Shown here in pieces: positions 1,148-50,508 of a DNA stretch of 64,000 nt (its first letter is position 1; every line of letters begins with the position of its first letter). The stretch lies in NCBI GenBank assembly GCA_965541585.1, contig CBEUCH010000014.1, forward strand, positions 12,670 through 76,669. The letters are read 5' to 3'. The notes beneath the pieces were generated by a model. It had not been told where the DNA came from and did not search any database. It saw only the letters and a list, made by a program, of their open reading frames with translations. The DNA is from an uncultured bacterium (GTDB lineage Bacteria > Zixibacteria > MSB-5A5 > UBA10806). The translations under genes and the position numbers were made by a program.

Positions 1148-2407
1148 ATGATATTCAGTCCGGAAAAGAGACGCCTCATTTTCATTCTTCTTGCGTTGTT
1201 GTTGGCGTTGACGACTCATTATGGTCCGGTTAAGGCTCAGGAGAGCATTTCTGAAGCGCCGATAATAGATCCGGATTCGGGTTTCATCTTTAGCTACAGC
1301 CTGCTGGCGCCGCCGCCGGGCCCGCCGACAGATCTTACGGCCGGCGATCTACCGAATGATCCGGGAGGAGCGGTCACGGTTGGCTGGAGAAAGGCTCCGG
1401 GCGACAACAGCATTTTCCACGCGGTACTGGGTTATCTTCTTTTTCGGTCAAGGTCGCCGGATACCGGTTTCGTTCTCCTGACAAGACTTCCAGCCGGCGC
1501 CGGCGGTTATTCCGATTCAGACACGTCGTTGGTCAACGGGGGAAATTATTATTATAAGGCAGCCTCGATCTATGAATCTGATACTCTATTTGCAGGAGTA
1601 GCCGGGCCCGCAGTTCCGAGGGCTCAGTTTTTTCATTCAAAGAGAATTCCGGTGCTTCTTTTTATGCTTCTTTTTACAGGCGCCGCTCTATATCTGATTT
1701 CCCACTCCAAGCGCGGAGGCAAGCTGTATATCCGCCCTATCGCCGGCATCGATGCGGTCGACGAGGCAATCGGGCGGGCGACAGAGATGGGCCGGCCGAT
1801 ATTGTTCGTTCCCGGGCTGGGCGAGGCCTCGCGCGTGGCAACCATTGCGGCCTTCACTATACTTGGCCGGGTAGCGAGAAAGGTAGCCGAATACCAAACC
1901 AGGATCATCGTACCGAATTACGATCCGGTGGTCATGACCATCTGCCAGGAAGTCGTAAAAGAGGCTTATACGTCTGCGGGCAGGCCCGAGGCTTACGATG
2001 CTAAGGACGTCTATTTTGTGACTCAGGATCAGTTTCCATATACGGCCTCTGTCAACGGTACCATGCTGAGGGAACGGCCGGCCACCAATTTCTATATGGG
2101 CATGTTTTATGCTGAATCGCTGATTCTGGCGGAGACAGGTTTCGTCGCCGGTTCCATTCAGATTGCCGGGACCGACCAGTTGATTCAGATCCCGTTTTTC
2201 GTAGCCGCCTGCGATTACACCTTGATGGGCGAGGAACTTTACGCCGCCTCTGCATATCTCTCACAGGAACCTCAGCAGATTGGCACCTTGAAGGCTCAGG
2301 ATTGGGGTAAGGTATTGGCTATCGCGCTGATGTTTGCCGGTGTTATCGCATATTTGTTCGGGAATGGCGCAGGGGAGGCGTTGACCACCTGGGTCACGGG
2401 AGGATAG
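1148..2407 (+). CDS. hypothetical exported/membrane protein: signal peptide, Pro-rich region, central TM segment, conserved C-terminal domain
   Basis: 419 aa ORF with N-terminal hydrophobic leader (LIFILLALLLALTT) and a mid-protein TM stretch (IPVLLFMLLFTGAALYLI). No motif recognised by eye. Confidence 0.5.
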   Translation: MIFSPEKRRLIFILLALLLALTTHYGPVKAQESISEAPIIDPDSGFIFSYSLLAPPPGPPTDLTAGDLPNDPGGAVTVGWRKAPGDNSIFHAVLGYLLFRSRSPDTGFVLLTRLPAGAGGYSDSDTSLVNGGNYYYKAASIYESDTLFAGVAGPAVPRAQFFHSKRIPVLLFMLLFTGAALYLISHSKRGGKLYIRPIAGIDAVDEAIGRATEMGRPILFVPGLGEASRVATIAAFTILGRVARKVAEYQTRIIVPNYDPVVMTICQEVVKEAYTSAGRPEAYDAKDVYFVTQDQFPYTASVNGTMLRERPATNFYMGMFYAESLILAETGFVAGSIQIAGTDQLIQIPFFVAACDYTLMGEELYAASAYLSQEPQQIGTLKAQDWGKVLAIALMFAGVIAYLFGNGAGEALTTWVTGG

Positions 2408-2475
2408 ACCAACAAGATGAGTATGCCGATTGCTGCAATAGAACAGCACCGACAAACGAACGGTCAGGCTATTAG

Positions 2476-3126
2476 ATGAGACGGGAAGTCCCCTTAGGGA
2501 TAGTCTTTGTCTGCGGCGCCTTCATGGCCCTTCAGTTTTTTGTACCGCACTATGTATCGGCTACCATATATCAGTATGCTCTGAACTGGACCATTATCAT
2601 CGGCATATTTACGCTGGTGGTCGGGATCGGCTCATTGGTGAATCTTCACTATGACAGGGTTTCCAAACAGAAAGAGAACTGGCCTTATTCAATTGTGACG
2701 CTTACGGCGCTTCTTTTCATGACGGTAATCGGTCTATTTTCTCCCGATGCTCTCCAGAACACCAAGGGCCTCTTTATGAAAATGTATTTTTATGTCTTAT
2801 CGCCGGTTCAGGCGACCATGTTCGCGCTCCTGGCGTTCTTTATCGCTTCGGCGGCTTATCGCGCTTTCAGAGCCAAGACATTACTGGCGACTTTGCTTTT
2901 GCTCTCGGCCGCTGTGGTTATGCTGGGGCGGGTGCCGATCGGCGATATGCTGACAGGCTGGCTGCCCGAGGGTTTGAGGTTCTCCGACATCGCCAAATAT
3001 ATTCTCGATTACCCGAACACCGCGGCCAAGCGGGCAATCTATATAGGCGTAGGGCTGGGCATAGCTGCCACCTCGCTTAAGATCATCCTGGGCATTGAGA
3101 GAACCTGGCTGGGTGGAGGGAAATGA
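2476..3126 (+). CDS. hypothetical polytopic membrane protein
   Basis: 216 aa with several hydrophobic helices. Overlaps the next ORF by 4 bp (operon). Confidence 0.5.
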   Translation: MRREVPLGIVFVCGAFMALQFFVPHYVSATIYQYALNWTIIIGIFTLVVGIGSLVNLHYDRVSKQKENWPYSIVTLTALLFMTVIGLFSPDALQNTKGLFMKMYFYVLSPVQATMFALLAFFIASAAYRAFRAKTLLATLLLLSAAVVMLGRVPIGDMLTGWLPEGLRFSDIAKYILDYPNTAAKRAIYIGVGLGIAATSLKIILGIERTWLGGGK

Positions 3127-3959
3127 TGGCGCAGGGGATCTGGCAAAAATTATTAGATCTCGACCGCAGATGGATATATCTCGTCATCGGTATAGTTACT
3201 TTCATACCGATGCTCAGATATATCGGGCTGCCGATCAAGATCACGCCGGAGGTGATAGCGGTTTATGATAGAATAGAATCGCAACCTCCCGGAACAGTAG
3301 TCATGGTACCCATGGAGTTCAGTCCGTCTACAATGGCCGAGCTTGAACCGATGGCCAGGGCGGTCTTGATTCACTGCTTTTCGCGGGATTTGAGGGTCAT
3401 ATCAACAGCGCTGCAGATTGACGGAGTGATTTTGATCGAACAGGTTTTAAGAGAATCGGCGGCGGAGTACGGCAAAAAATATGGCGAAGATTATGTTTTC
3501 CTGGGATATAAACCGTATCCCGAAATGGTCATTTTAGGAATGGGAGAAAATTTCCGCAATAATTTCCCTAAAGACTATTATAATAATGATCTCGACGATT
3601 TGCCGATGATGGCAGGGGTCAATAATTATTCCAGTGTTTCCTTCATTGTAAATATTAACGCCACTTCGGGAGTCGATTACTGGATTAACTATGCTAACGG
3701 CAGCTACGGTGTGCCCCTGGCTCTGGGCGTTACCGCGGTCATCGCCACCGACTATTACGCCTTCCTGCAGTCGGAGCAGATTTTCGGCCTGATGGGCGGG
3801 CTGAAGGGTGCCGCCGAATATGAGAGGCTTATCGGACGACCAAAAGATGTCGCCAATCGCGCCATGACCTCGGTTTCGGTGGCGCACGTATTCATTCTAC
3901 TCTTCATAATCCTGGGTAACGTGGCCTTCTTTGCCGCACGCCGATCGGAACGGAGCTGA
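3123..3959 (+). CDS. hypothetical membrane-anchored protein
   Basis: 278 aa with N- and C-terminal hydrophobic segments. Tightly packed with its neighbours. Confidence 0.5.
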   Translation: MMAQGIWQKLLDLDRRWIYLVIGIVTFIPMLRYIGLPIKITPEVIAVYDRIESQPPGTVVMVPMEFSPSTMAELEPMARAVLIHCFSRDLRVISTALQIDGVILIEQVLRESAAEYGKKYGEDYVFLGYKPYPEMVILGMGENFRNNFPKDYYNNDLDDLPMMAGVNNYSSVSFIVNINATSGVDYWINYANGSYGVPLALGVTAVIATDYYAFLQSEQIFGLMGGLKGAAEYERLIGRPKDVANRAMTSVSVAHVFILLFIILGNVAFFAARRSERS

Positions 3960-3962
3960 GTT

Positions 3963-4715
3963 ATGGAATCAATATCCCTTGGCGCAATGTTCTGGATGAC
4001 AATAGCGGCCTTTCTGACCCTTTGCATATTTTCCTTTCTCTATCGGGATAACCCGTTTTACAGATTTGCCGAACACCTGATTGTGGGCATATCCGCGGGA
4101 TACTGGATAGTCGTACTGTATCACACATCATTGACCATCCTGTGGATCGAACCATTACTTGCGTCCGTAAAAGCTTTCTCCAGCTCTGAAGGATCCTTCC
4201 TGGGCAAAACGGGGATGCTCATTGTGAGTATCATGCCGGGAGCCATCGGACTGTTGATGTTCAGCAGGTTTTTCAAAAAGACATCCTGGATCTCACGATG
4301 GCCCATCGCATTCTATCTCGGCGTTTCGGCAGGGGTGGCCTTACCTCGGTTTCTGCAAAGTTTCGTAATCAGGCAGGTGGCGGCCAATATGATAGATCCC
4401 AGGGCAATTTATAACACCATGTCATCGGACCTGACCATATTATTCACCTACGGCAACAGCACTATGCAGTTCTGGCAGGGACTGGGCCAGATTATAATAC
4501 TCCTGGGGACCATCTGCGGTCTGGCTTATTTCTATTTTTCCGCCGAGCATAAGGGTATTTTCGGTGGGGCCGCCAAGATCGGGATATGGATATTGATGAT
4601 CGGGTTTGGCGCCACGTTCGGGTATACCGTCATGGCGCGCATCTCGCTTTTGATCGGACGTTTCAATTTTCTGATCGGCTGGGTTTCCGCTCTGGGTGAG
4701 CTCTTTAGAACGTAG
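3963..4715 (+). CDS. hypothetical polytopic membrane protein
   Basis: 250 aa with about 6-7 predicted TM helices. Starts 4 bp after the upstream stop. Confidence 0.5.
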   Translation: MESISLGAMFWMTIAAFLTLCIFSFLYRDNPFYRFAEHLIVGISAGYWIVVLYHTSLTILWIEPLLASVKAFSSSEGSFLGKTGMLIVSIMPGAIGLLMFSRFFKKTSWISRWPIAFYLGVSAGVALPRFLQSFVIRQVAANMIDPRAIYNTMSSDLTILFTYGNSTMQFWQGLGQIIILLGTICGLAYFYFSAEHKGIFGGAAKIGIWILMIGFGATFGYTVMARISLLIGRFNFLIGWVSALGELFRT

Positions 4716-36454: not shown

Positions 36455-36572
36455 AGCTGAAATCTAACAGCGGTCGGTGCATCGGTCAAGCGTCCCGCCT
36501 CCTATTTCGGGTAGTTTTTGCTTGACTACAGGGAAGCATCGGCTATTATTATTTTTCGCCGCGGTAAGGCGT

Positions 36573-36644
36573 GGGGGTGTAGCTCAGTGGTAGAGCATCT
36601 GCCTTTTAAGCAGGTGGTCGAAGGTTCAATCCCTTCCACCCTCA
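36573..36644 (+). tRNA. tRNA-Lys (anticodon TTT)
   Basis: Cloverleaf traced by hand: acceptor gggggtg/caccctc, D-arm tagctcagtggtagagca, anticodon loop cttttaa, T-arm ggttcaatccc. CCA not encoded. Confidence 0.8.
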
Positions 36645-36671
36645 TTTGAGATGAGAAAAAGATGTTTCAAT

Positions 36672-36745
36672 GCGCCTTTAGCTCAGCTAGGTAGAGCAGC
36701 TGACTCTTAATCAGGAGGTCGTAGGTTCGATCCCTACAAGGCGCA
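36672..36745 (+). tRNA. tRNA-Lys (anticodon CTT, read by hand; Arg-TCT not fully excluded)
   Basis: Acceptor gcgcctt/aaggcgc, D-arm tagctcagctaggtagagca, anticodon loop ctcttaa, T-arm ggttcgatccc. Confidence 0.7.
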
Positions 36746-36991
36746 TTTTATGATACCACATAATGAAAAATCCGCGCCAGGAATCGGACCGGAACCTCCC
36801 GGATCGTAAGTGTTTATTATTCAGCCAGTTTTATTGTAGTTAACAGTGTAGCCCGTGACGAACCATCCAAATAAGCCAATTCGGGGGATTATTTTGTATA
36901 TGTATCCTTATCTTCAAACTTCCTATTGACATATGGCGAAATTGGAGATAAAAGATAGAATGAGATCAAACTCACGCACTGAGGATTATTG

Positions 36992-40330: not shown

Positions 40331-40501
40331 ATCCGGCAAATCAGATCGCATGATTTTCAGATCCCATGACACCCAAAATCTCATTTATCGCGCCGATTCG
40401 CTGAAACCGGGCGCTTCTATTTTGAGTATATTCCATTGGGATTGGATTGACGGATATACAGCCGATCATTATATTGAATCGGAGTTGTTCTTTGATAACA
40501 T

Positions 40502-40857
40502 GGGGGCGACAGGTTTCGACGGGATGACTGATGTCTGACCTGCGCGTCGAGGTCCCGGTAACCTCGTAAAACAATCGGGAAACCTTACAAGTGCCGACGA
40601 TTATTCGTACGCACTGGCTGCCTAAGACACTGGCGGCTCGTTCTACCTGGATTTGCTTATCGGTCCGGGATAGAGCGTCGATTAGATAAGATAGCGGCAT
40701 AAACCGTCCCCGATTATGTCGCGAAACAAAAGGGGGCTGGACGGGAGGAAAGCCCGGCGATCGGCGTTTCTCCTGTTGAGATTAAATATTCGCCTACGCG
40801 CGTAGACGGTTATTCGGAGGCATTTTCGGACGGGGGTTCGATTCCCCCCGCCTCCAT
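40502..40857 (+). ncRNA. ssrA: transfer-messenger RNA (tmRNA), one-piece
   Basis: 5' end gggggcgacaggtttcgacggg. Internal tag reading frame gcc gac gat tat tcg tac gca ctg gct gcc taa = ADDYSYALAA* at 40592..40624. 3' T-arm/acceptor ggacgggggttcgattccccccgcctcca. Confidence 0.85.
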
Positions 40858-40874
40858 TAATTTGTCTTGACAAT

Positions 40875-41135
40875 ATGATTTATCTTTATGTATTACAGGG
40901 CGAAAAGGGTAAGCGCTATGTTGGTATTACCAACAACTTAGAACGCCGTTTATCTGAACATCGTAGCGGAAAAACTAAGGGCGGACAAATCATAGGTAAG
41001 TTTAAACTACTGCACATTGAGAAATTTGAAGATTATAAAGAAGCTCGGAAACGCGAGGTATTCCTTAAATCAGGAGTTGGCCGTGAGTGGTTAAATCAAG
41101 AATTTCCTCGGACGGGGTCCGCCGAAGGCGGATAA
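40875..41135 (+). CDS. small GIY-YIG nuclease-family protein
   Basis: N-terminus MIYLYVLQGEKGKRYVGITNNLERRLSEH matches the GIY-YIG core. The last ~9 codons are read out of the tmRNA-3'-end repeat, so the native C-terminus is uncertain. Confidence 0.65.
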   Translation: MIYLYVLQGEKGKRYVGITNNLERRLSEHRSGKTKGGQIIGKFKLLHIEKFEDYKEARKREVFLKSGVGREWLNQEFPRTGSAEGG

Positions 41136-41179
41136 AGCTTGGTCGCCTCCGGCGACTTCGATTCCCCCCGCCTCCACCA
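41108..41179 (+). repeat. direct repeat B: copy of the ssrA 3' terminus (with encoded CCA) carrying a 39-nt insertion
   Basis: cggacgggg[tccgccgaaggcggataaagcttggtcgcctccggcgac]ttcgattccccccgcctccacca. Matches 40830..40857 apart from the bracketed insertion. Confidence 0.8.
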
Positions 41180-41518
41180 ATTGCAAGTGCCTATGTTACA
41201 ACAGGATATAGAAACAACTGGCAGAGCATTATTGCCGTGATCCCCCACCTATCATCCAATAACTTTTATGACTAAGAATAACCTAAGACCGTTTTGGGCA
41301 CGATTTGGCCGCACTCTATTTTGCCGATTATGAAACCTAATTAATACTATATTGGAAATAAAGATGCATTTTACGATTTCTTGTTGTATATATAAAAAGT
41401 AATTAGATATTAGAAATATGAAAAGTAAAAGACTTTACCACAGAATTGATGAGGTCTGGCAGGTGCGAGCGATGACGAGGAAGCAACTCGAGGAGAAGAA
41501 ATAGGGATACTTTAACTC

Positions 41519-42529
41519 ATGACTCCCAATGATAAGGCATCGCTCAGCGAAGAGGCTATAGAAAGGCAATATCCTGATATCTATAATTCTCTTATGCCGC
41601 TCCTTCGTAGGTCCCAGCCGGGTTCACTAGACGCGTACTTGGAAACGGTTGCCTGCGACGTGAATATTGAGCAAACTCAAACTAATGCTCATTGTAGATT
41701 CATTGCTTTGGATGGAAACAAGAGAGCACGGGTTAAGGATTTTGTACGATTCATTGGAAAAAAAATTACAGATTTTGCGATTCCGCGTGGTGAGATAAAC
41801 CGTGCTTTGAACGAAGGAGCAAAAACAAGTTCAACAGCCCCAGTAGATAAACTTAGTAAAAAAGCAAGGAACCTTTTTACTCGTTTGCCTAAAAGTGGTG
41901 AAGGAGGAGAGGTTCTGCTTTCAATCTTAGCCGAAACCATCCTTCGCCTGCCTCAGCTGTTTACAAAAATGGTTTTAAAAACCAATGCCAATATGCATGT
42001 TCACGGAAGTGATGCCATTCACTTCGGGATTAACCAATCGAATGGTAGTCTTGCACTGTATTGGGGAGAGTCAAAACTTTATGCAGATGCGGGCGCGGCT
42101 ATTAGAGAATGTTTTACTAGTCTTGCACCATTCCTGTTGGGCGCAGGTGGCAGCGGGGCGGCGCAGGAACGCGACCTGCAACTCATGCGTGATGGGATCG
42201 ATCTAGATGACATCAAACTTGAAAATGCGCTGAAACAATACCTCGATCCGGACAGCACCATGTTTAAACAGTTTGAATACCGGGGTCTATGCCTTGTTGG
42301 ATTTAACTCGGAGGCTTATCCAACATCACCAAACTCACCGGAGGCAAATCAATTAAAACAAAAGATCGAAACGACCTTTGACAATTGCAAAAACCAAATC
42401 CAGAATCGTGTATTAGCAGAGAGAATAGAAACTTTCACGATTGAATTATTCTGTGTTCCCTTCCCAAAGGTTGACGATTTCCGAAGTGCCTTCCGTGAAG
42501 AATTGGGGTTGCCGGATGGGCAAAGCTGA
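41519..42529 (+). CDS. candidate HamA-like protein (possible PD-(D/E)xK nuclease)
   Basis: 336 aa. Segment HVHGSDAIHFGINQSNGSLALYWGESKLY gives a D...E-x-K arrangement. Stop overlaps the downstream start (ATGGGCAAAGCTGA). Low GC. Confidence 0.45.
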   Translation: MTPNDKASLSEEAIERQYPDIYNSLMPLLRRSQPGSLDAYLETVACDVNIEQTQTNAHCRFIALDGNKRARVKDFVRFIGKKITDFAIPRGEINRALNEGAKTSSTAPVDKLSKKARNLFTRLPKSGEGGEVLLSILAETILRLPQLFTKMVLKTNANMHVHGSDAIHFGINQSNGSLALYWGESKLYADAGAAIRECFTSLAPFLLGAGGSGAAQERDLQLMRDGIDLDDIKLENALKQYLDPDSTMFKQFEYRGLCLVGFNSEAYPTSPNSPEANQLKQKIETTFDNCKNQIQNRVLAERIETFTIELFCVPFPKVDDFRSAFREELGLPDGQS

Positions 42530-45119
42530 TTTCCAAGACTGGCTTCTTCAAAATTCGGGTTTTCAAAATCAATATCATCTTTTGATCATCGACTCTGTTG
42601 CTAGCCAATTTCCCAACCTGAAACGAAATGATCATTATGACCAGACAAAGCATGACTGGAATTATTTGTTGTTATGTGCCAGTTTACTTGCGCAGTCGGA
42701 AACTGAGAAGTGTCAAAGTGCTGCCCTTCGAATCTCTCAGTATTGCTTGGAATGTGCAAGTACGTCAGAGGTAGAAAAAGATGCAGCAGCAGTTGTCTTA
42801 GATACTCTGGCGAACCGCCCAGCGATTAAATTAGCAGAAGAGCGAGAGCTTATCCAGCCGGGCTATTCGGATAGAATACCGTTCCCTCTTTTCCAGGAAT
42901 GGACCCGCCATTCTATTGAGAATTCAATCACGTTATCTAATGCCGAAACCATACGGGCGAACAAGTTTCAATGCAGGTTTTGGGAAAGCGTCAAACGCTA
43001 TGATCGGATCAGCATTTCAGCTCCTACATCTGCCGGCAAATCATTCATAATTGGACGTTGGTTGGCTGAATACCTGCGAAAGAATCAAAGGGCATCAATT
43101 ATTTATATTGTGCCAACACGCGCACTTATACAGCAAGTCCAGCGAGATATAAGGGACGTACTCAAATGTGAAGTTATCGAAAACGTAGAGGTTACCACTC
43201 TACCACTGAGAGCATCTTTTAAGGCTGACAGGGCAAACATATTTGTTTTCACCCAAGAACGGTTTCATATCCTCCTTGCAGCGTTCAACAATAATGTGCC
43301 AGTAGATCTGTTGATAATTGATGAAGCTCAGAAGATAGGAGATAATTATCGGGGCGTATTATTGCAACAGGCCATTGAAGCCATCTCTCAAAGAAGACCA
43401 GCAGCTAATTTCCTCTTTTCCAGCCCAATGACGGATAATCCAAAAGTGTTGCTTGAAGATGCCCCTGATGGAGTTTCTCAAGACGCCATCGTAAGTGAAG
43501 ATACTACAGTCAACCAGAATCTTATTTGGGCGTCGCAGGTCCCAAGGAAACCTTGTACTTGGAGTGTTGATTTGATTCTACAAGAAGACGCTGTCGAAAT
43601 AGGTAAAATAGAACTTTCGACAAGTCCGACACATACAAGTAAACGTTTGCCGTTCGTTGCGTTCTCTTTAGGCAACTCAAAAGGGGGAAACATTATTTAC
43701 GTCAACGGCGCTGCCGATGCGGAGAAGACCGCCAAGCAACTCTATGATTTGATCGGAAATGATTCGAACACACCGGGAGATACGGAATTATGCGATCTCA
43801 TCGAACTAATTCGCAAGACTATTCATCGACACTATTCACTTGGAAACGTCATCAGTCGAGGGGTTGCTTTTCACTATGGTAATATGCCGCTCCTTGTCCG
43901 GACAGAAATTGAAAGATTGTTCCGTGCCAACAAGATTAAATACCTGGTATGTACATCAACACTGATTGAAGGCATGAATATGCCGTGCCAAAGCATATTC
44001 GTCCGAGGGCCAACGAAAGGGAAAGGAAATCCTATGACATCAAGTGATTTCTGGAATCTTGCCGGACGCGCCGGACGATGGGGCAAAGAATTTCAGGGTA
44101 ATATTGTTTGTGTCGATCCTCGGAAAGACAATGTATGGAAGAATGGTGCCCCAAAGGGGCGAACGAGGTTCAGGATAAATAGAACAGCGGATGACGTCCT
44201 TTTAAATCAGGAGGAGAAGCTACTCAAATTTATTGATACTGGCACACCACGAAATGAAGCACGTAAGGACCCAAATTTGGAGTATGTATTTTCCTTCCTT
44301 GTCTCATCATACATACGCAACAACGGTATTGTAACTGCACCCTGGGCAAAACGTTATCCTGAAGAGTTTGTTAATAAGCTGGAAGCAAAAATCAAAAGTA
44401 TAATTGAGAGTATTGCTATACCAGAAGAAGTCATCCTGCGGAATCCGGGCATTAGCCCAATCGCAATGAATGATCTTCTTGGATATTTCCATGAGCGGAC
44501 AGCTAATCGTAATGAACCTGTTGAAACGCTGATTCCCGTTCGGGCAGAGAGTGATGATGCATTCGATGAATATGCAAAGATTCTTAACCGAATCAACAAG
44601 TGTCTAGGATACGAGTTTGGCAGTGGAAAACGAGTGCGGCAACTTGCTTTATTGATCGTTGACTGGATGAAAGGCTATCCATTGGCACGGATTATATCTA
44701 GCCGTGAAAGCTATTATGGCTCCAGCGATTTGCCAGCATTGATAAGGAATACCATGAATGATGTGGAAGAATATGCACGTTTTCATGCGCCAAAGTATCT
44801 TGCATGCTATGTGGATATTCTAAAGGTGCATTTAGCCAAAAATGAGCGCCATGATCTTATTGAAAGCTTGCTGGAGCTTAATGTTCTCCTTGAGTTTGGC
44901 GTTTCACATAAGACTCAGCTTTCACTTATGGGATTAGGGCTGAGTCGGACGAGCGTTATTACAATATCAGAGTTCATCGCTGAAGACTCACTAAATGAAT
45001 CTGAATGTTTGCAGTGGTTAAAAGAAAATGATTGGATGACACAAGATATGCCTGAAATCATCAAACGAGAAGTAGGAAATCTACTAACGAGCCGCCAAGA
45101 GGTAGGCACAGAGGAATAG
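42441..45119 (+). CDS. SF2 helicase (DEAQ-box). Candidate HamB-like partner. Probable true start at 42516 (MGKADF)
   Basis: Walker A ISAPTSAGKSF, motif II LLIIDEAQKIGD, further helicase-like blocks (VPTRALIQQV, FHYGNMPLLVRTEIE, CTSTLIEGMNMP), and a long C-terminal domain. Confidence 0.6.
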   Translation: MNYSVFPSQRLTISEVPSVKNWGCRMGKADFQDWLLQNSGFQNQYHLLIIDSVASQFPNLKRNDHYDQTKHDWNYLLLCASLLAQSETEKCQSAALRISQYCLECASTSEVEKDAAAVVLDTLANRPAIKLAEERELIQPGYSDRIPFPLFQEWTRHSIENSITLSNAETIRANKFQCRFWESVKRYDRISISAPTSAGKSFIIGRWLAEYLRKNQRASIIYIVPTRALIQQVQRDIRDVLKCEVIENVEVTTLPLRASFKADRANIFVFTQERFHILLAAFNNNVPVDLLIIDEAQKIGDNYRGVLLQQAIEAISQRRPAANFLFSSPMTDNPKVLLEDAPDGVSQDAIVSEDTTVNQNLIWASQVPRKPCTWSVDLILQEDAVEIGKIELSTSPTHTSKRLPFVAFSLGNSKGGNIIYVNGAADAEKTAKQLYDLIGNDSNTPGDTELCDLIELIRKTIHRHYSLGNVISRGVAFHYGNMPLLVRTEIERLFRANKIKYLVCTSTLIEGMNMPCQSIFVRGPTKGKGNPMTSSDFWNLAGRAGRWGKEFQGNIVCVDPRKDNVWKNGAPKGRTRFRINRTADDVLLNQEEKLLKFIDTGTPRNEARKDPNLEYVFSFLVSSYIRNNGIVTAPWAKRYPEEFVNKLEAKIKSIIESIAIPEEVILRNPGISPIAMNDLLGYFHERTANRNEPVETLIPVRAESDDAFDEYAKILNRINKCLGYEFGSGKRVRQLALLIVDWMKGYPLARIISSRESYYGSSDLPALIRNTMNDVEEYARFHAPKYLACYVDILKVHLAKNERHDLIESLLELNVLLEFGVSHKTQLSLMGLGLSRTSVITISEFIAEDSLNESECLQWLKENDWMTQDMPEIIKREVGNLLTSRQEVGTEE

Positions 45120-45161
45120 TTGAAAGGCAAAGTGTAAGAGCTCGGTGTGCTTTGGTTATTT

Positions 45162-45258
45162 GCGCGTAGACTGTTATTCGGAGGCATTTTCGGACGGGGT
45201 CCGCCGAAGGCGGATAAAGCTTGGTCGCCTCCGGCGACTTCGATTCCCCCCGCCTCCA
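45162..45258 (+). repeat. direct repeat C: longer copy of the ssrA 3' region with the same 39-nt insertion
   Basis: cgcgtagactgttattcggaggcattttcggacgggg[39-nt insertion identical to repeat B]ttcgattccccccgcctcca. The 5' 37 nt match 40801..40837. Confidence 0.8.
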
Positions 45259-45510
45259 GTAAAGTATCTTATTGCATAGTAACGGGCTATACCCGGACGG
45301 GGGATCCGTACCCCGAATTTTGAGGTTTTTTCCCCCTTTAATCCTCAATAACTTAAAATAACTTGAAACCTAAATAGTCACAATTTCGTAAAAAAATAAG
45401 GTCGGGCCGAAGAAAGAGATTTGCTATTCCTACAGAAATTGGCCCTGTCAAATAGTACTTAGCAAATCAGAGGTGACAACCTGAAGAATGAAAGAAAGGC
45501 GGAAAAAGCA

Positions 45511-47162: not shown

Positions 47163-47200
47163 ATAGGGATAATGGGGTTCGATTCCCCACGTTCCCATAT
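47163..47200 (+). repeat. orphan tRNA 3'-half fragment (T-arm plus acceptor), possible att-site remnant
   Basis: ..atggggttcgattccccacgttccca has no matching 5' half upstream. Differs from both tRNA-Lys genes. Confidence 0.45.
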
Positions 47201-47433
47201 GATGCAATTGTTTATTTATAGGCGGATTCCAGTTAAGCATGGCCTCAACAATAATCGGTAGTTACGAACCAGGAATTGCAGCAAATCCCTACGCATCATA
47301 GGCCACAAACAACATTCTTGACAAAATTATCAATATTTATTATTTTTACCAAAACAGGCGTCACAGTATTGTGCCTGCCTTGTCTTCGAAGTCGATTAAT
47401 GCAACTGCTCAAAACCCCAAACAAGGAGAGATC

Positions 47434-50400
47434 ATGTTTTCTAGTGGAAAGTCTGTGTCCGGCTTAATTGGGGCACTGCTGTTTTCAGCAACCATGTCGA
47501 CGATAGGCGCTCAAGCCGAAAACGATGTCGCAGGCGACGTAAAATCATCTGGTTTGATTACTTCGGTACCACGGACTATGTCTTATCAGGGGTATCTAAA
47601 AGACGCGGGGGGGCTACCCGTATCAGACACTCTCGAAATCACTTTCCGTATCTATGATGTCGAATCAGGGGGAAGCGCCCTATGGACGGAAACGGTTGCC
47701 GCCGTATCAATCATTGACGGTAACTTCACCGCCATCGTCGGAGAAACCACTCCGATAAACTTGAGCTTCGATGTCGACTACTGGATGTCGTTGCAGGTGG
47801 AGGGCGATCCCCTGGAGATGGACCCGAGACTGAAACTTCATATGTCGGCTTACGCGGCACGAAGCGACACGACCGATTATGCCCTCAACTCCGATTTGCT
47901 GGATGGTCTCGACTCGGGCGATTTTGCCGGTTCCGCTCATGACCATGACGCGGATTATGTCAACGAGGGGCAGGCAAATTCCGTTACAGGCGCTATGGTA
48001 GTTGATGGCACGGTACAGTTTGGCGACATTGGCCAGAACGGCGCCTCCGCAGGCCAGATTATGAAATGGAATGGTTCGGCCTGGATTGCGGATAATGATG
48101 AGACTGGACCAGGGGGTGGCAGTGGCTGGGTCGATGATGGTAATTATATCAGGTTAGAGACGGGCACTGATTCTGTCGGAATAGGCACGGCCACGCCATC
48201 GGAAAAGCTGGAGGTTGCAGGGAGTATTCTGGTAACCGATAAAGCCACCATCGGTCCAAGCAACTCAAATACCGGTGCGAACGCGTTTGTGGCAGGTTTA
48301 GCCAATACGGTAAGCGGAGATTGGACTACAATCGGCGGTGGTCGGATAAACACGGCAAGCGGCCATGATGCGGTGATCGGAGGCGGTCGAGGCAACACTG
48401 CCAGCAGCTCATATTATGCCACGGTCGGCGGCGGCAACGAAAACACCGCCGGCGCTGGTGGCGCTACTATAAGTGGCGGAAGATTTAATCTGTGCAACGC
48501 GGATTACGCAACTGTCGGCGGAGGTTATGCCGATACTGCCAGCGGGGCCTCTTCCACAATCGGCGGAGGTTGGAGTAATATCGCTAGTGGAGTAGAAGCT
48601 ACAGTCAGCGGAGGTCAGATGAATATCGCCGCCGGCCAACAGGCATCGATCGGCGGTGGAAGTCAAAACTCCGCAAGCGGTTTCAGAGCTACGGTCGGTG
48701 GAGGTGTGGGAAATTTTGCTACCGGAGACAATGCAACGATCGCTGGCGGCTTCGGTAACCACGCAACCGCGAATGGTGCGACAGTAGGGGGCGGCAGTAC
48801 GAACACCGCCAGCGGTACCGCCGCCACTGTTCCGGGCGGGAATATGAATGAAGCTGCCGGTATTTACTCTTTTGCCGCCGGCCGTCGAGCTAAAGCTAAT
48901 CACATTGGAGCATTTGTGTGGGCAGATCAGACCAACTCGGATTTTGCCTCCACCGGTGTCGATCAATTCCTCATTCGTGCGTCAGGGGGTGTTGGAATCG
49001 GTACGACGAGTCCAGCATCGGAATTGGATGTTGCCGGCACCATCCAGGCTACCGGATTTATGATGACCACCGGTGCCTCCGACGGATATATTCTCACCTC
49101 CGATGCCTCGGGATCAGGATCTTGGCAATCTCCGGCCCCCAGCGGCGGCTGGATAGATGATGGAAATGCTGTCAGGCTGGAGACAGTTAACGATTCGGTT
49201 GGTATTGGAACTGCTACGCCGTCGGAAAAATTGGATGTTTCAGGTAATATCCTGGTGAGCGGAACGGCGACTATCGGAACGGGACATACCAACACAGGCA
49301 CGAGCGCTTTCTTAGCGGGGGAGAACAATACGGCCAGTGGAAATTACACCGCTGTTGGTGGAGGTCTGAATAACACCTCAAGTGCGAATTACGCGACAGT
49401 CAGCGGCGGCTGGAATAACAACGCCGGAGAGATAAACGCAACAGTCGGTGGCGGTTGGGACAATGCTGCCAATGGGCAATACTCAGTTGTCGCCGGAGGA
49501 AGGGAGAACACCGCCGGTATAGATTTCGCCTCGGTTGGTGGCGGAGCTTATAACTTCGCGGGCATCAGCAGCTACGCTACTGTCGCCGGGGGGTATGCCG
49601 ACACCGCCAGCGGAGGCTACGCCACAGTTAGCGGCGGTCAAAGTAACATCGCCAGCGAGCAAAATGCGGCCGTGGGTGGCGGTAGTAACAATTCTGCCAG
49701 CGGTACGTATGCGACCGTTGCCGGCGGTCGAGACAATATCAGTTCAGGGCAAAATGCGACGATTGGCGGCGGTACTACTAACACGGCCAACGGCGGTAGT
49801 GCTACAGTTGCCGGTGGTGGAAATAATATTTCCAGCGGTTCGTCCAGCACAATCGGTGGAGGAGACAGTAATACCTCCGGTGCCAGTTCCAGTACTGTAG
49901 GCGGCGGAAAGAGAAACAATGCCAGCGGATATGTCAGCACAATCGGTGGTGGTCAGGATAACATAGCCAGTAACCAATATGCTACTGTGCCGGGTGGATA
50001 TTTAAATGAGGCGACAGGTATTTATTCCTTCGCGGCCGGGCGTCGGGCTAAAGCCAATCATGATGGGGCTTTCGTATGGGGCGACCGGACCAACGCGGAT
50101 ATAACTTCCTCCGCTGCAGATGAATTCAAAATACGCGCCTCCGGCGGAACCTATCTATACTCTAACTCCAGTCTCACCGCAGGTGTAACGCTGGCGGCCG
50201 GAGCTTCATCCTGGAGTTCCGTTTCCGACAGCACGCTAAAGCGTAATATCAGACAGGTAAACGGTGAAGAAATTCTCGAAAAACTGGCACAGTTACCCAT
50301 CAGCCAGTGGAGCTATAAAGCTCAGGATGAAAGCATTGAACATATCGGCCCGATGGCACAGGATTTCTATGAGATCTTCGGGCTCGGCGCCGACAACAAA

Positions 50401-50508
50401 ACGATCTCTACGATAGATCCGTCGGGGATAGCTCTAGCCGGTATACAAGCGTTATTGGATGAAATCGAACTATTGAAAGCCCGTATCGCCGAGCTTGAAG
50501 GTAAGTAA
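47434..50508 (+). CDS. large exported repeat protein: tandemly duplicated ~320 aa fibre-like module with Gly-rich short repeats, plus C-terminal S74 intramolecular-chaperone (endosialidase/tail-fibre type) domain
   Basis: Strong SD aaggagag before ATG 47434. Signal peptide. Repeated ..ATVGGG.xN.ASG.. units. Two copies of GW(V/I)DDGN..RLET..DSVGIGTATPSEKL(E/D)V... . C-terminus SDSTLKRNI...IELLKARIAELEGK. Confidence 0.65.
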   Translation: MFSSGKSVSGLIGALLFSATMSTIGAQAENDVAGDVKSSGLITSVPRTMSYQGYLKDAGGLPVSDTLEITFRIYDVESGGSALWTETVAAVSIIDGNFTAIVGETTPINLSFDVDYWMSLQVEGDPLEMDPRLKLHMSAYAARSDTTDYALNSDLLDGLDSGDFAGSAHDHDADYVNEGQANSVTGAMVVDGTVQFGDIGQNGASAGQIMKWNGSAWIADNDETGPGGGSGWVDDGNYIRLETGTDSVGIGTATPSEKLEVAGSILVTDKATIGPSNSNTGANAFVAGLANTVSGDWTTIGGGRINTASGHDAVIGGGRGNTASSSYYATVGGGNENTAGAGGATISGGRFNLCNADYATVGGGYADTASGASSTIGGGWSNIASGVEATVSGGQMNIAAGQQASIGGGSQNSASGFRATVGGGVGNFATGDNATIAGGFGNHATANGATVGGGSTNTASGTAATVPGGNMNEAAGIYSFAAGRRAKANHIGAFVWADQTNSDFASTGVDQFLIRASGGVGIGTTSPASELDVAGTIQATGFMMTTGASDGYILTSDASGSGSWQSPAPSGGWIDDGNAVRLETVNDSVGIGTATPSEKLDVSGNILVSGTATIGTGHTNTGTSAFLAGENNTASGNYTAVGGGLNNTSSANYATVSGGWNNNAGEINATVGGGWDNAANGQYSVVAGGRENTAGIDFASVGGGAYNFAGISSYATVAGGYADTASGGYATVSGGQSNIASEQNAAVGGGSNNSASGTYATVAGGRDNISSGQNATIGGGTTNTANGGSATVAGGGNNISSGSSSTIGGGDSNTSGASSSTVGGGKRNNASGYVSTIGGGQDNIASNQYATVPGGYLNEATGIYSFAAGRRAKANHDGAFVWGDRTNADITSSAADEFKIRASGGTYLYSNSSLTAGVTLAAGASSWSSVSDSTLKRNIRQVNGEEILEKLAQLPISQWSYKAQDESIEHIGPMAQDFYEIFGLGADNKTISTIDPSGIALAGIQALLDEIELLKARIAELEGK

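Follow-up and report, generated by a model that had tools for sequence, protein, structure and literature searches.

The 64-kb window analysed here (64,000 nucleotides, nt, of contig CBEUCH010000014.1 from an uncultured Zixibacteria bacterium; all positions refer to this stretch) carries ssrA, the gene for transfer-messenger RNA (tmRNA). It is followed by a small open reading frame (ORF) for a GIY-YIG nuclease, by a Hachiman defence system and by several partial copies of the tmRNA 3' end. We consider it likely that these represent a tandem array of inserts at the T-loop of ssrA, made up of one unit of a GIY-YIG family, a Hachiman island and older degenerate copies, with homing as the inferred mode of spread. 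The first unit (40857-41156, about 300 bp) would be a member of a large family associated with tRNA and tmRNA genes. This family is apparently a tiny, widespread and so far undescribed mobile element encoding a nuclease. A description of it was not found in the literature; open-access papers and preprints only were covered, so this absence is weak evidence.

Copies of the tmRNA 3' end in the window and in related strains

In the following, A, B and C denote the copies of the tmRNA 3' end, X' the tmRNA sequence just 5' of the T-loop and Y the sequence from the T-loop to the 3' end. L001 is the independent assembly of a close relative. The features of the array are:

40447..40475, + strand: promoter-like site TTGACG-17-TATATT upstream of ssrA, by consensus match alone
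40502..40856, + strand: ssrA, complete tmRNA gene (ARAGORN), tag ADDYSYALAA
40857..40874, + strand: spacer of 18 nt, ttaatttgtcttgacaat, which separates the restored tmRNA end from the ORF; of its first 12 nt, 8 agree with the trailer of copy C
40875..41135, + strand: GIY-YIG nuclease ORF, 86 aa, single domain (Pfam PF01541, 3e-14)
41108..41117, + strand: X' of copy B, tcggacgggg, repeats 10 nt of tmRNA sequence immediately 5' of the T-loop
41118..41156, + strand: hairpin module of unit 1, 39 nt (hairpin 1 at 41118-41132, linker TAAAGCTTG at 41133-41141, hairpin 2 at 41142-41156)
41157..41179, + strand: Y of copy B, ttcgattccccccgcctcca at 41157-41176 (T-loop to discriminator, 20 nt), and an encoded CCA; left boundary of the Hachiman island
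41180..45161, + strand: integrase-less cargo island with the Hachiman system, about 4 kb
45162..45199, + strand: X' of copy C, a tmRNA stretch of 38 nt that differs from 40798-40835 at one position (97% identity)
45200..45238, + strand: hairpin module of copy C, same as 41118-41156, no ORF in front
45239..45258, + strand: Y of copy C, ttcgattccccccgcctcca, then gta; trailer gtaaagtatctt; common to L001, with the same downstream DNA there
45294..45318, + strand: degenerate older T-arm copy CGGACGGGGGATCCGTACCCCG, 81%; also in L001
47174..47197, + strand: degenerate T-arm/acceptor copy ggggttcgattccccacgttccca; common to L001, synteny with L001 resumes after it

The tmRNA gene is intact. Copy A (40826-40856) consists of tcggacggggg (40826-40836), ttcgatt (40837-40843), cccccc and gcctcca, followed by tta. 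Its T-arm and acceptor strand are uninterrupted, as in a normal tmRNA end, and CCA is unencoded. The Rfam model RF00023 was matched in full length, including the T-arm, at 40502-40859 with 192.6 bits. Copy A thus completes a full-scoring tmRNA. The original prediction had further described the tmRNA 3' end as present in the three copies A, B and C. This was confirmed, and the two degenerate copies have to be added; the window contains five or more copies of the ssrA end instead of three. The copies at 45294-45318 and 47174-47197 show older events.

All details of sequence recorded for B and C could be reproduced. The insertion of 39 nt is shared without any difference: no mismatch separates 41108-41176 from 45190-45258 (69 nt, 100% identity), and the 64-kb window contains the 39-mer TCCGCCGAAGGCGGATAAAGCTTGGTCGCCTCCGGCGAC exactly two times, with 0 occurrences expected. 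The two perfect hairpins reported in this insertion exist, but are better written as TCCGCC-GAA-GGCGGA (41118-41132) and GTCGCC-TCC-GGCGAC (41142-41156), with 6-bp stems and 3-nt loops. CCA is encoded after B and not after A, and C retains tmRNA sequence upstream of its T-arm (38 nt, 97% identical to 40798-40835), as had been stated. Both this CCA and the mismatch in C (1/38) would fit DNA of foreign origin. The C-terminus PRTGSAEGG of the GIY-YIG protein is indeed encoded by target-derived sequence in copy B. The last nine codons of the ORF correspond to X' (PRTG) and hairpin 1 (SAEGG), and the TAA stop follows directly after hairpin 1.

With the regenerated target gene at one end and the displaced fragments B and C at the other, the region has the layout by which genomic islands are recognised. 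Each unit reads Y' (the new Y that restores the gene), spacer, ORF or cargo, X' and hairpins, and is inserted between T-stem and T-loop. If the two ends of a unit are joined, they would read X'-hairpins-Y', which is the target split exactly at the insertion point. The element supplies the new 3' end (copy A); hence the displaced original 3' end is found behind the hairpins (copy B).

The same order, ssrA-A-GIY-B-insert-C, was found in L001, which derives from another ENA sample. Its DNA is 94-98% identical to the window and its GIY-YIG protein 97% identical. Copy C of L001 comprises about 71 nt of aligned tmRNA homology and the 39-mer with one mismatch, followed by the same downstream DNA. Copies B and C differ at two positions in L001, versus 100% identity in the window, which suggests gene conversion between the two window copies. 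Instead of Hachiman, the slot between B and C of L001 holds a 0.6-kb segment with one 166-aa ORF; for this GIY-less insert no match was detected in PADLOC, NCBIfam and Pfam. The shared architecture with a different insert indicates that the architecture is real and that the B-C interval is a variable slot. A collapsed or duplicated repeat of the assembly was therefore rejected as a very improbable explanation. Repeats of this kind do break assemblies, and ten of the 80 related loci described below start at the element. However, the order is the same in the independent assembly, with small B/C differences and another insert, and each copy is surrounded by unique sequence.

Three further relatives were compared. 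L002, a Zixibacterium, shows A-GIY-B and, further on, two hairpin-free ordinary ssrA fragments. L115 and L116 agree with the window in the tag peptide and have a flanking protein with about 71% identity; their ssrA is uninterrupted, with no GIY-YIG gene and no hairpins. A tyrosine-integrase island is located at ssrA of L115, and an integrase-less island in L116 ends in a clean, hairpin-free CGGACGGGGG+TTCGATTCCCCCCGCCTCCA fragment (10+20 nt). The comparison with L001, L002 and the window identifies L115 and L116 as carriers of the native ssrA without insert, and the element as polymorphic among relatives. Such presence/absence polymorphism is expected of homing genes: the element is present in the window, L001 and L002 and absent from L115 and L116.

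These loci also bear on the origin of the 39 nt. The original prediction regarded B and C as a matched pair of attachment (att) sites from a different ssrA allele. The pair does bracket an inserted segment, the Hachiman island, within a tandem array at ssrA. A different allele as source has to be dismissed, because in L115 and L116, whose tag is the same, ssrA is uninterrupted and the displaced copies lack hairpins. Hairpin module and GIY-YIG ORFs were found together at many tRNA genes and at tmRNA genes of other phyla; thus, the 39 nt belong to the GIY-YIG element.

The family at tRNA and tmRNA genes

One genome per species was scanned, 389 relatives were confirmed by tblastn, and the 80 best loci were fetched and annotated with ARAGORN. 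At 43 of these 80 loci, the end of a tRNA or tmRNA gene lies at most 300 nt upstream of the ORF on the same strand, and at 17 a tRNA start lies just downstream. Ten loci begin at a contig end. Another ten show neither arrangement by the ARAGORN rule; several of those still have hairpins. The ORF abuts a complete tRNA or tmRNA gene in 60/80 loci from many phyla, which span Zixibacteria, Planctomycetota, Patescibacteria and Bacteroidota. Among the targets are tRNA-Glu, Leu, Ala, Pro, Val, Met, Ser, Lys and Asp; eight loci have tmRNA as target. Elements with different types of target are intermingled on the protein tree. When metagenomes were scanned for the module of the tmRNA type, only three loci were recovered, all GIY-associated.

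A common plan was found 3' of the ORF: X' (about 10 nt, 5' of the local T-loop), a hairpin, TAAAG-variable-CTTG, a second hairpin and Y. In most loci read, Y is a copy of the local sequence from T-loop to 3' end and stands behind the second hairpin. The duplication often extends 5-7 nt beyond the tRNA end. A strict pattern was run on 43 loci and detected the module at the end of the ORF in most of them. Copy B is the short form of the module without middle hairpin. The window shares the features of the family, i.e. an ORF between a complete tmRNA gene and a partial, hairpin-interrupted copy, the hairpin format and the linker TAAAGCTTG. In two elements at tRNA-Val genes (L029:7228-7325 and L037:7222-7322), X' (GAACGCGG and AATCGCGG, respectively) resembles the tmRNA T-stem side and not tRNA-Val. 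From this tmRNA-like X' it follows that X' is carried by the element and Y is local. Probably, these sequences are the footprint of a target switch from ssrA to a tRNA gene.

Distant relatives show a mirrored form, in which a partial 5' tRNA copy, split in the D-loop or anticodon arm by a hairpin of the same type, is followed by the ORF and then by the intact tRNA gene. Such loci are L045, L052-L055, L058, L061, L062, L067-L071 and L075-L080, with hairpins such as CCTGCCTGCCGGCAGGCAGG. Their targets are tRNA-Leu, Gln, Thr, Arg, His, Gly and Asn, and the form is common in Patescibacteria, Bacteroidota, Ignavibacteria and Omnitrophota.

Tandem units were found at L005, L047, L064, L066 and L079. 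At L084:5039-5576 (tmRNA tag ADEPLALAA), the order after the intact end is ORF-less module, GIY-YIG ORF, module, spacer of 14 nt and a second ORF-less module. In a sub-variant at L084, hairpin 2 is located within the T-loop copy (TTCGAC-ctg-hairpin-TT). At L082:170-265, one module beside a tmRNA end contains hairpin 2 with the CTTG linker in five tandem repeats with a period of 19 nt, which shows that hairpin units can amplify locally. At L018:4894-7298, tRNA-Glu is followed by 2 kb of cargo and then by the GIY-YIG ORF with its module. This cargo consists of two ORFs, one of 264 aa on the minus strand and one of 305 aa, for neither of which a match was found in NCBIfam, PADLOC or Pfam. It can thus be stated that cargo can sit inside the nuclease-bearing unit. 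One element beside tRNA-Pro (L021, contig DATKVG010000014.1) comes from a bin with the label Bathyarchaeia archaeon, which means either that the family extends to archaea or that this contig was mis-binned.

The distribution is relevant for the explanation closest to the original prediction. There, integrases would have inserted two islands in succession by way of an attP site with a variant ssrA 3' end that contained the 39 nt, B and C would be att repeats, and the GIY-YIG ORF would be passive cargo. A regenerated target with displaced fragments is the hallmark of islands in tRNA genes (PMC4383910). Islands do occur at ssrA of the relatives (the tyrosine integrase of L115, the hairpin-free attR of 10+20 nt in L116 and the two fragments in L002), and the CCA behind B as well as the mismatch in C point to att DNA of foreign origin. 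However, no integrase or recombinase was found in 40857-45258: the ORF list comprises GIY-YIG, HamA, HamB and overlapping spurious ORFs, and Pfam revealed no recombinase domain. Hairpin module and GIY-YIG ORF co-travel at nine tRNA species and at tmRNA genes across phyla, and the insert was detected in none of the sampled native ssrA genes. The mirror-image form at the 5' side of tRNA genes is also unlike integrase islands; to our knowledge, this arrangement is not what such islands do. A history by integrases alone accounts for the pile-up but leaves unexplained why hairpins and nuclease are linked throughout the family, and is regarded as unlikely. A phage attP origin of the module was likewise rejected. 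Viral contigs were scanned for hairpin 1 plus TAAAGC, and none of the 29 matches had a second hairpin or a T-loop.

Hairpin module and nuclease

All hairpins follow one format, NNNGCC-nnn-GGCNNN with free loops, and are joined by TAAAG...CTTG linkers. Hairpins 1 and 2 from 25 elements were aligned (alignment A2). Pairing amounts to 98.9%, a percentage which is partly circular because the sequences were chosen as hairpins. Five pairs are changed on both sides, with 32 compensatory cells; these compensatory changes are not circular. The covariation score of A2 was reached by 0 of 500 shuffles and not by slid partners. The sense strand admits some G-U pairs. The covariation indicates that the hairpins are under structural constraint. 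In the window, four hairpins of this format were found versus 0.28 expected, all in B and C, and nearly all hairpins of the related loci adjoin the ORF. Copy C and the ORF-less modules of L084 keep hairpin 1 without a reading frame. Thus, this hairpin is not conserved merely as codons. The RNA folds of B and C are no better than those of shuffled sequences (z = -1.3 and -1.0), hence the folding energy alone is uninformative here.

A dispersed repeat of the type of repetitive extragenic palindromic (REP) sequences or miniature inverted-repeat transposable elements (MITEs) was rejected, as no copies exist in the 64-kb window outside B and C. At L018:1893-1935 and L018:2568-2612, two hairpin-CTTGATCA-hairpin units with the same GCC/GGC tops were found far from any tRNA gene, apparently inside a long ORF (1859-4489). 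These units hint at an independent spread of hairpins like that of REP or MITE elements.

The residues Y5, Y15, R25, H29 and E61 of the 86-aa protein are invariant or nearly so (alignment A1); we take them to be the GIY-YIG active-site residues. The AlphaFold2 (AF2) model has a predicted local distance difference test (pLDDT) value of 83 and shows, with confidence, the canonical GIY-YIG fold b-b-a-a-b-a-a. It is least confident at the C-terminus, where residues 82-86 have a pLDDT <50 and the last block averages 42. This unusual tail (xRTGSAxGG, consensus TxxAxGG) is kept in many homologues with 60-78% identity, which means that they too read into a T-stem-like sequence and hairpin. The nearest structures are UPF0213 proteins (1ywl, 1zg2), followed by Slx1 and the UvrC N-domain; I-TevI ranks lower. 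The similarity to UPF0213 and Slx1 is moderate, with a template modelling (TM) score of 0.5-0.6. In an exhaustive profile-free search, 2,540 cluster representatives were found at E<=0.001, almost all of them 70-130 aa long.

A more far-reaching explanation is a guide function of the module. A transcript or single-stranded DNA of the form X'-hairpins-Y would pair with the target, the hairpins would bulge at the insertion point, and the GIY-YIG nuclease would cut the branched structure; specificity would then reside in the target-identical flanks. A conserved scaffold does lie between flanks matching the local tRNA or tmRNA. The protein, with its 86 aa, lacks a DNA-binding domain and is similar to Slx1, a nuclease that acts on branched DNA. 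In addition, the module is kept without adjacent ORF in copy C and at L084, and G-U pairs are tolerated on the sense strand. On the other side, X' of L029 and L037 is mismatched to the current target, copy A would be targeted too, and the window RNA folds reach only z = -1.3. We also know of no GIY-YIG enzyme that is guided by nucleic acids. Such a pairing mechanism is held to be distinctly improbable. The claim built on it, that the module is a nucleic-acid guide for the 86-aa Slx1-like nuclease and hence the system a minimal reprogrammable guided homing system and a new enzymatic class, is slightly less probable still.

A group I intron in the T-loop of tmRNA is known from Clostridium botulinum. 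It shares with the window the insertion region in ssrA and a possible endonuclease. By analogy, the A-B segment could be an endonuclease-encoding intron which is spliced, so that copy B with CCA is the real 3' end, and the ORF does match TIGR01453, a family of group I intron endonucleases, weakly and below the threshold (18.5 bits, cut-off 56). However, Rfam at the gathering threshold and at E<=1 gave no intron or ribozyme family; models of tmRNA and tRNA alone were found, and at E<=1 over 40450-45450 those of tmRNA alone. A group I intron or other ribozyme was rejected. Copy A is already a full-scoring tmRNA, the non-coding part is about 60 nt, and copy C has hairpins with no upstream body to splice to. 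In contrast to the Clostridium intron, there is no ribozyme, and the gene is restored by duplication instead of splicing. It is hardly credible that the segment is an intron.

Mobility, cargo and relation to known systems

The preferred explanation, a tandem array arising by homing, assigns four parts to the element: a target copy from T-loop to 3' end, which would regenerate the gene, a spacer, an ORF of 80-90 aa for the GIY-YIG protein, and X' with the hairpin module. The ORF is probably co-transcribed from the promoter of the tRNA or tmRNA gene. In the window, the site at 40447..40475 is a probable promoter of ssrA and the co-oriented GIY-YIG ORF, by its match to the consensus; promoter-like sites are no more numerous in the region than expected by chance. 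Between ssrA and the ORF, no terminator-like site is present. The nuclease would break uninterrupted T-arm targets, and repair from the element-bearing copy would complete homing. Since the hairpins split the element's own target copy, they could confer self-immunity and suppress repeat-mediated deletion. Alternatively, they might be the structure bound by the Slx1-like nuclease. Tandem arrays may be a consequence of copy A being a target again.

The second unit (41177-45238) would be an integrase-less Hachiman island bounded by B and by the second hairpin-interrupted copy C. Its features are:

41519-42529, + strand: HamA (DUF1837); Pfam HamA 4.7e-59, PADLOC 1.8e-115
42441-45119, + strand: HamB, DEAD-box helicase (DEAD/Helicase_C); PADLOC E=0

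The Hachiman system is complete, with both genes in full length and canonical order. The longest HamB ORF overlaps HamA by 89 nt. As the PADLOC match of HamB begins at residue 26, the real start is probably the ATG at 42516, which leaves an overlap of 14 nt. The closest HamA relative (79% identical, L085:1-9198) directly follows BREX-type genes (PglZ) in a defence island. That Hachiman travels with the module was rejected, since this contig shows HamA beside BREX genes and no tRNA or hairpin context. Thus, compared with known Hachiman systems (HamA/HamB), both genes and their order agree and the location by ssrA differs, the closest relative lying in a BREX-type island; the system itself is ordinary, and its location alone is different. 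Most likely, unit 2 was integrated or recombined into B/C, or it came in as a replacement cassette between conserved flanks. Integration at B followed by deletion between tmRNA-homologous stretches would also give the observed order. Copy C would have acquired or kept its hairpins by gene conversion from B.

Further genes were noted on both sides of the array. Two genes for tRNA-Lys with the anticodons UUU and CUU lie side by side at 36572-36746, upstream of ssrA at a distance of 4 kb; L115 and L116 show synteny for them. A repeat-rich protein of 1045 aa is encoded downstream at 47371-50508, in the part where the window is again syntenic with L001; its homologue in L001 has a Peptidase_S74 match.

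Several points weigh against homing of a GIY-YIG element. Mobility is read from the distribution alone. Copy A is again a perfect target, which makes a simple model of self-immunity incomplete. A separate DNA-binding domain is absent from the 86-aa single-domain protein according to Pfam and AF2, and the pairing percentage of the hairpins is, as stated above, partly circular. Large cargo beside the hairpin module was found in the window, L001 and L018 only. Moreover, ordinary islands in the lineage use the same 10+20-nt block as X'+Y of copy B. L116 shows this use; unit 2, and conceivably unit 1 as well, could therefore have been moved by integrases that act in trans.

Genomic islands of the Islander type at tRNA and tmRNA genes are documented (PMC4383910). 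Like these islands and their integrase-less tandem derivatives, the cis-mobilizable elements, the array has a copy of the gene 3' end which regenerates the gene, with the displaced fragment at the far end. Tandem pile-up at ssrA and defence-gene cargo are further similarities. In contrast to Islander-type islands, there is no tyrosine integrase, unit 1 has only about 300 bp, the fragment is split by covarying hairpins, and the mirror form occurs at the 5' (D-loop) side.

SegB of phage T4 is a free-standing GIY-YIG homing endonuclease located among tRNA genes (PMC2330249). With such Seg-type genes the element shares the GIY-YIG core, an adjacent conserved target, patchy presence and tandem or amplified copies. 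Seg proteins and I-TevI possess a linker and a DNA-binding domain and have about 200-250 aa, whereas here a bare catalytic domain of 86 aa was found. Furthermore, the target is duplicated and not disrupted or co-converted, and the element includes a structured hairpin module. In sequence and fold, the protein matches UPF0213/YhbQ-type proteins and Slx1 best. UPF0213 is an uncharacterised family, and Slx1 needs Slx4 and acts in repair. REP sequences with their RAYT enzymes and IS200/IS605 elements have in common with the family short GC-rich hairpins with conserved tops and covarying stems, one small nuclease gene and local amplification (L082). Their enzyme belongs to the HUH type, while here a GIY-YIG protein is encoded, and the hairpins stand inside tRNA or tmRNA copies, not in the space between genes, and are undispersed in the window. 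In general, the element is rated as akin to homing endonuclease genes and elements integrating into tRNA genes rather than as categorically new.

If this reading is true, the family would be among the smallest autonomous mobile elements in bacteria, consisting of an 86-aa nuclease and a structured module of 40-60 nt. It would explain the numerous, so far puzzling genes annotated as "GIY-YIG nuclease family protein" beside tRNAs, odd tRNA fragments and contig breaks at these sites. An essential RNA gene would be invaded without intron or integrase. The specificity seemingly lies in target-identical flanks around a conserved scaffold, which makes the nuclease worth biochemical testing. In the window, the element marks a slot in which defence cargo, here Hachiman, is exchanged between near-identical strains.

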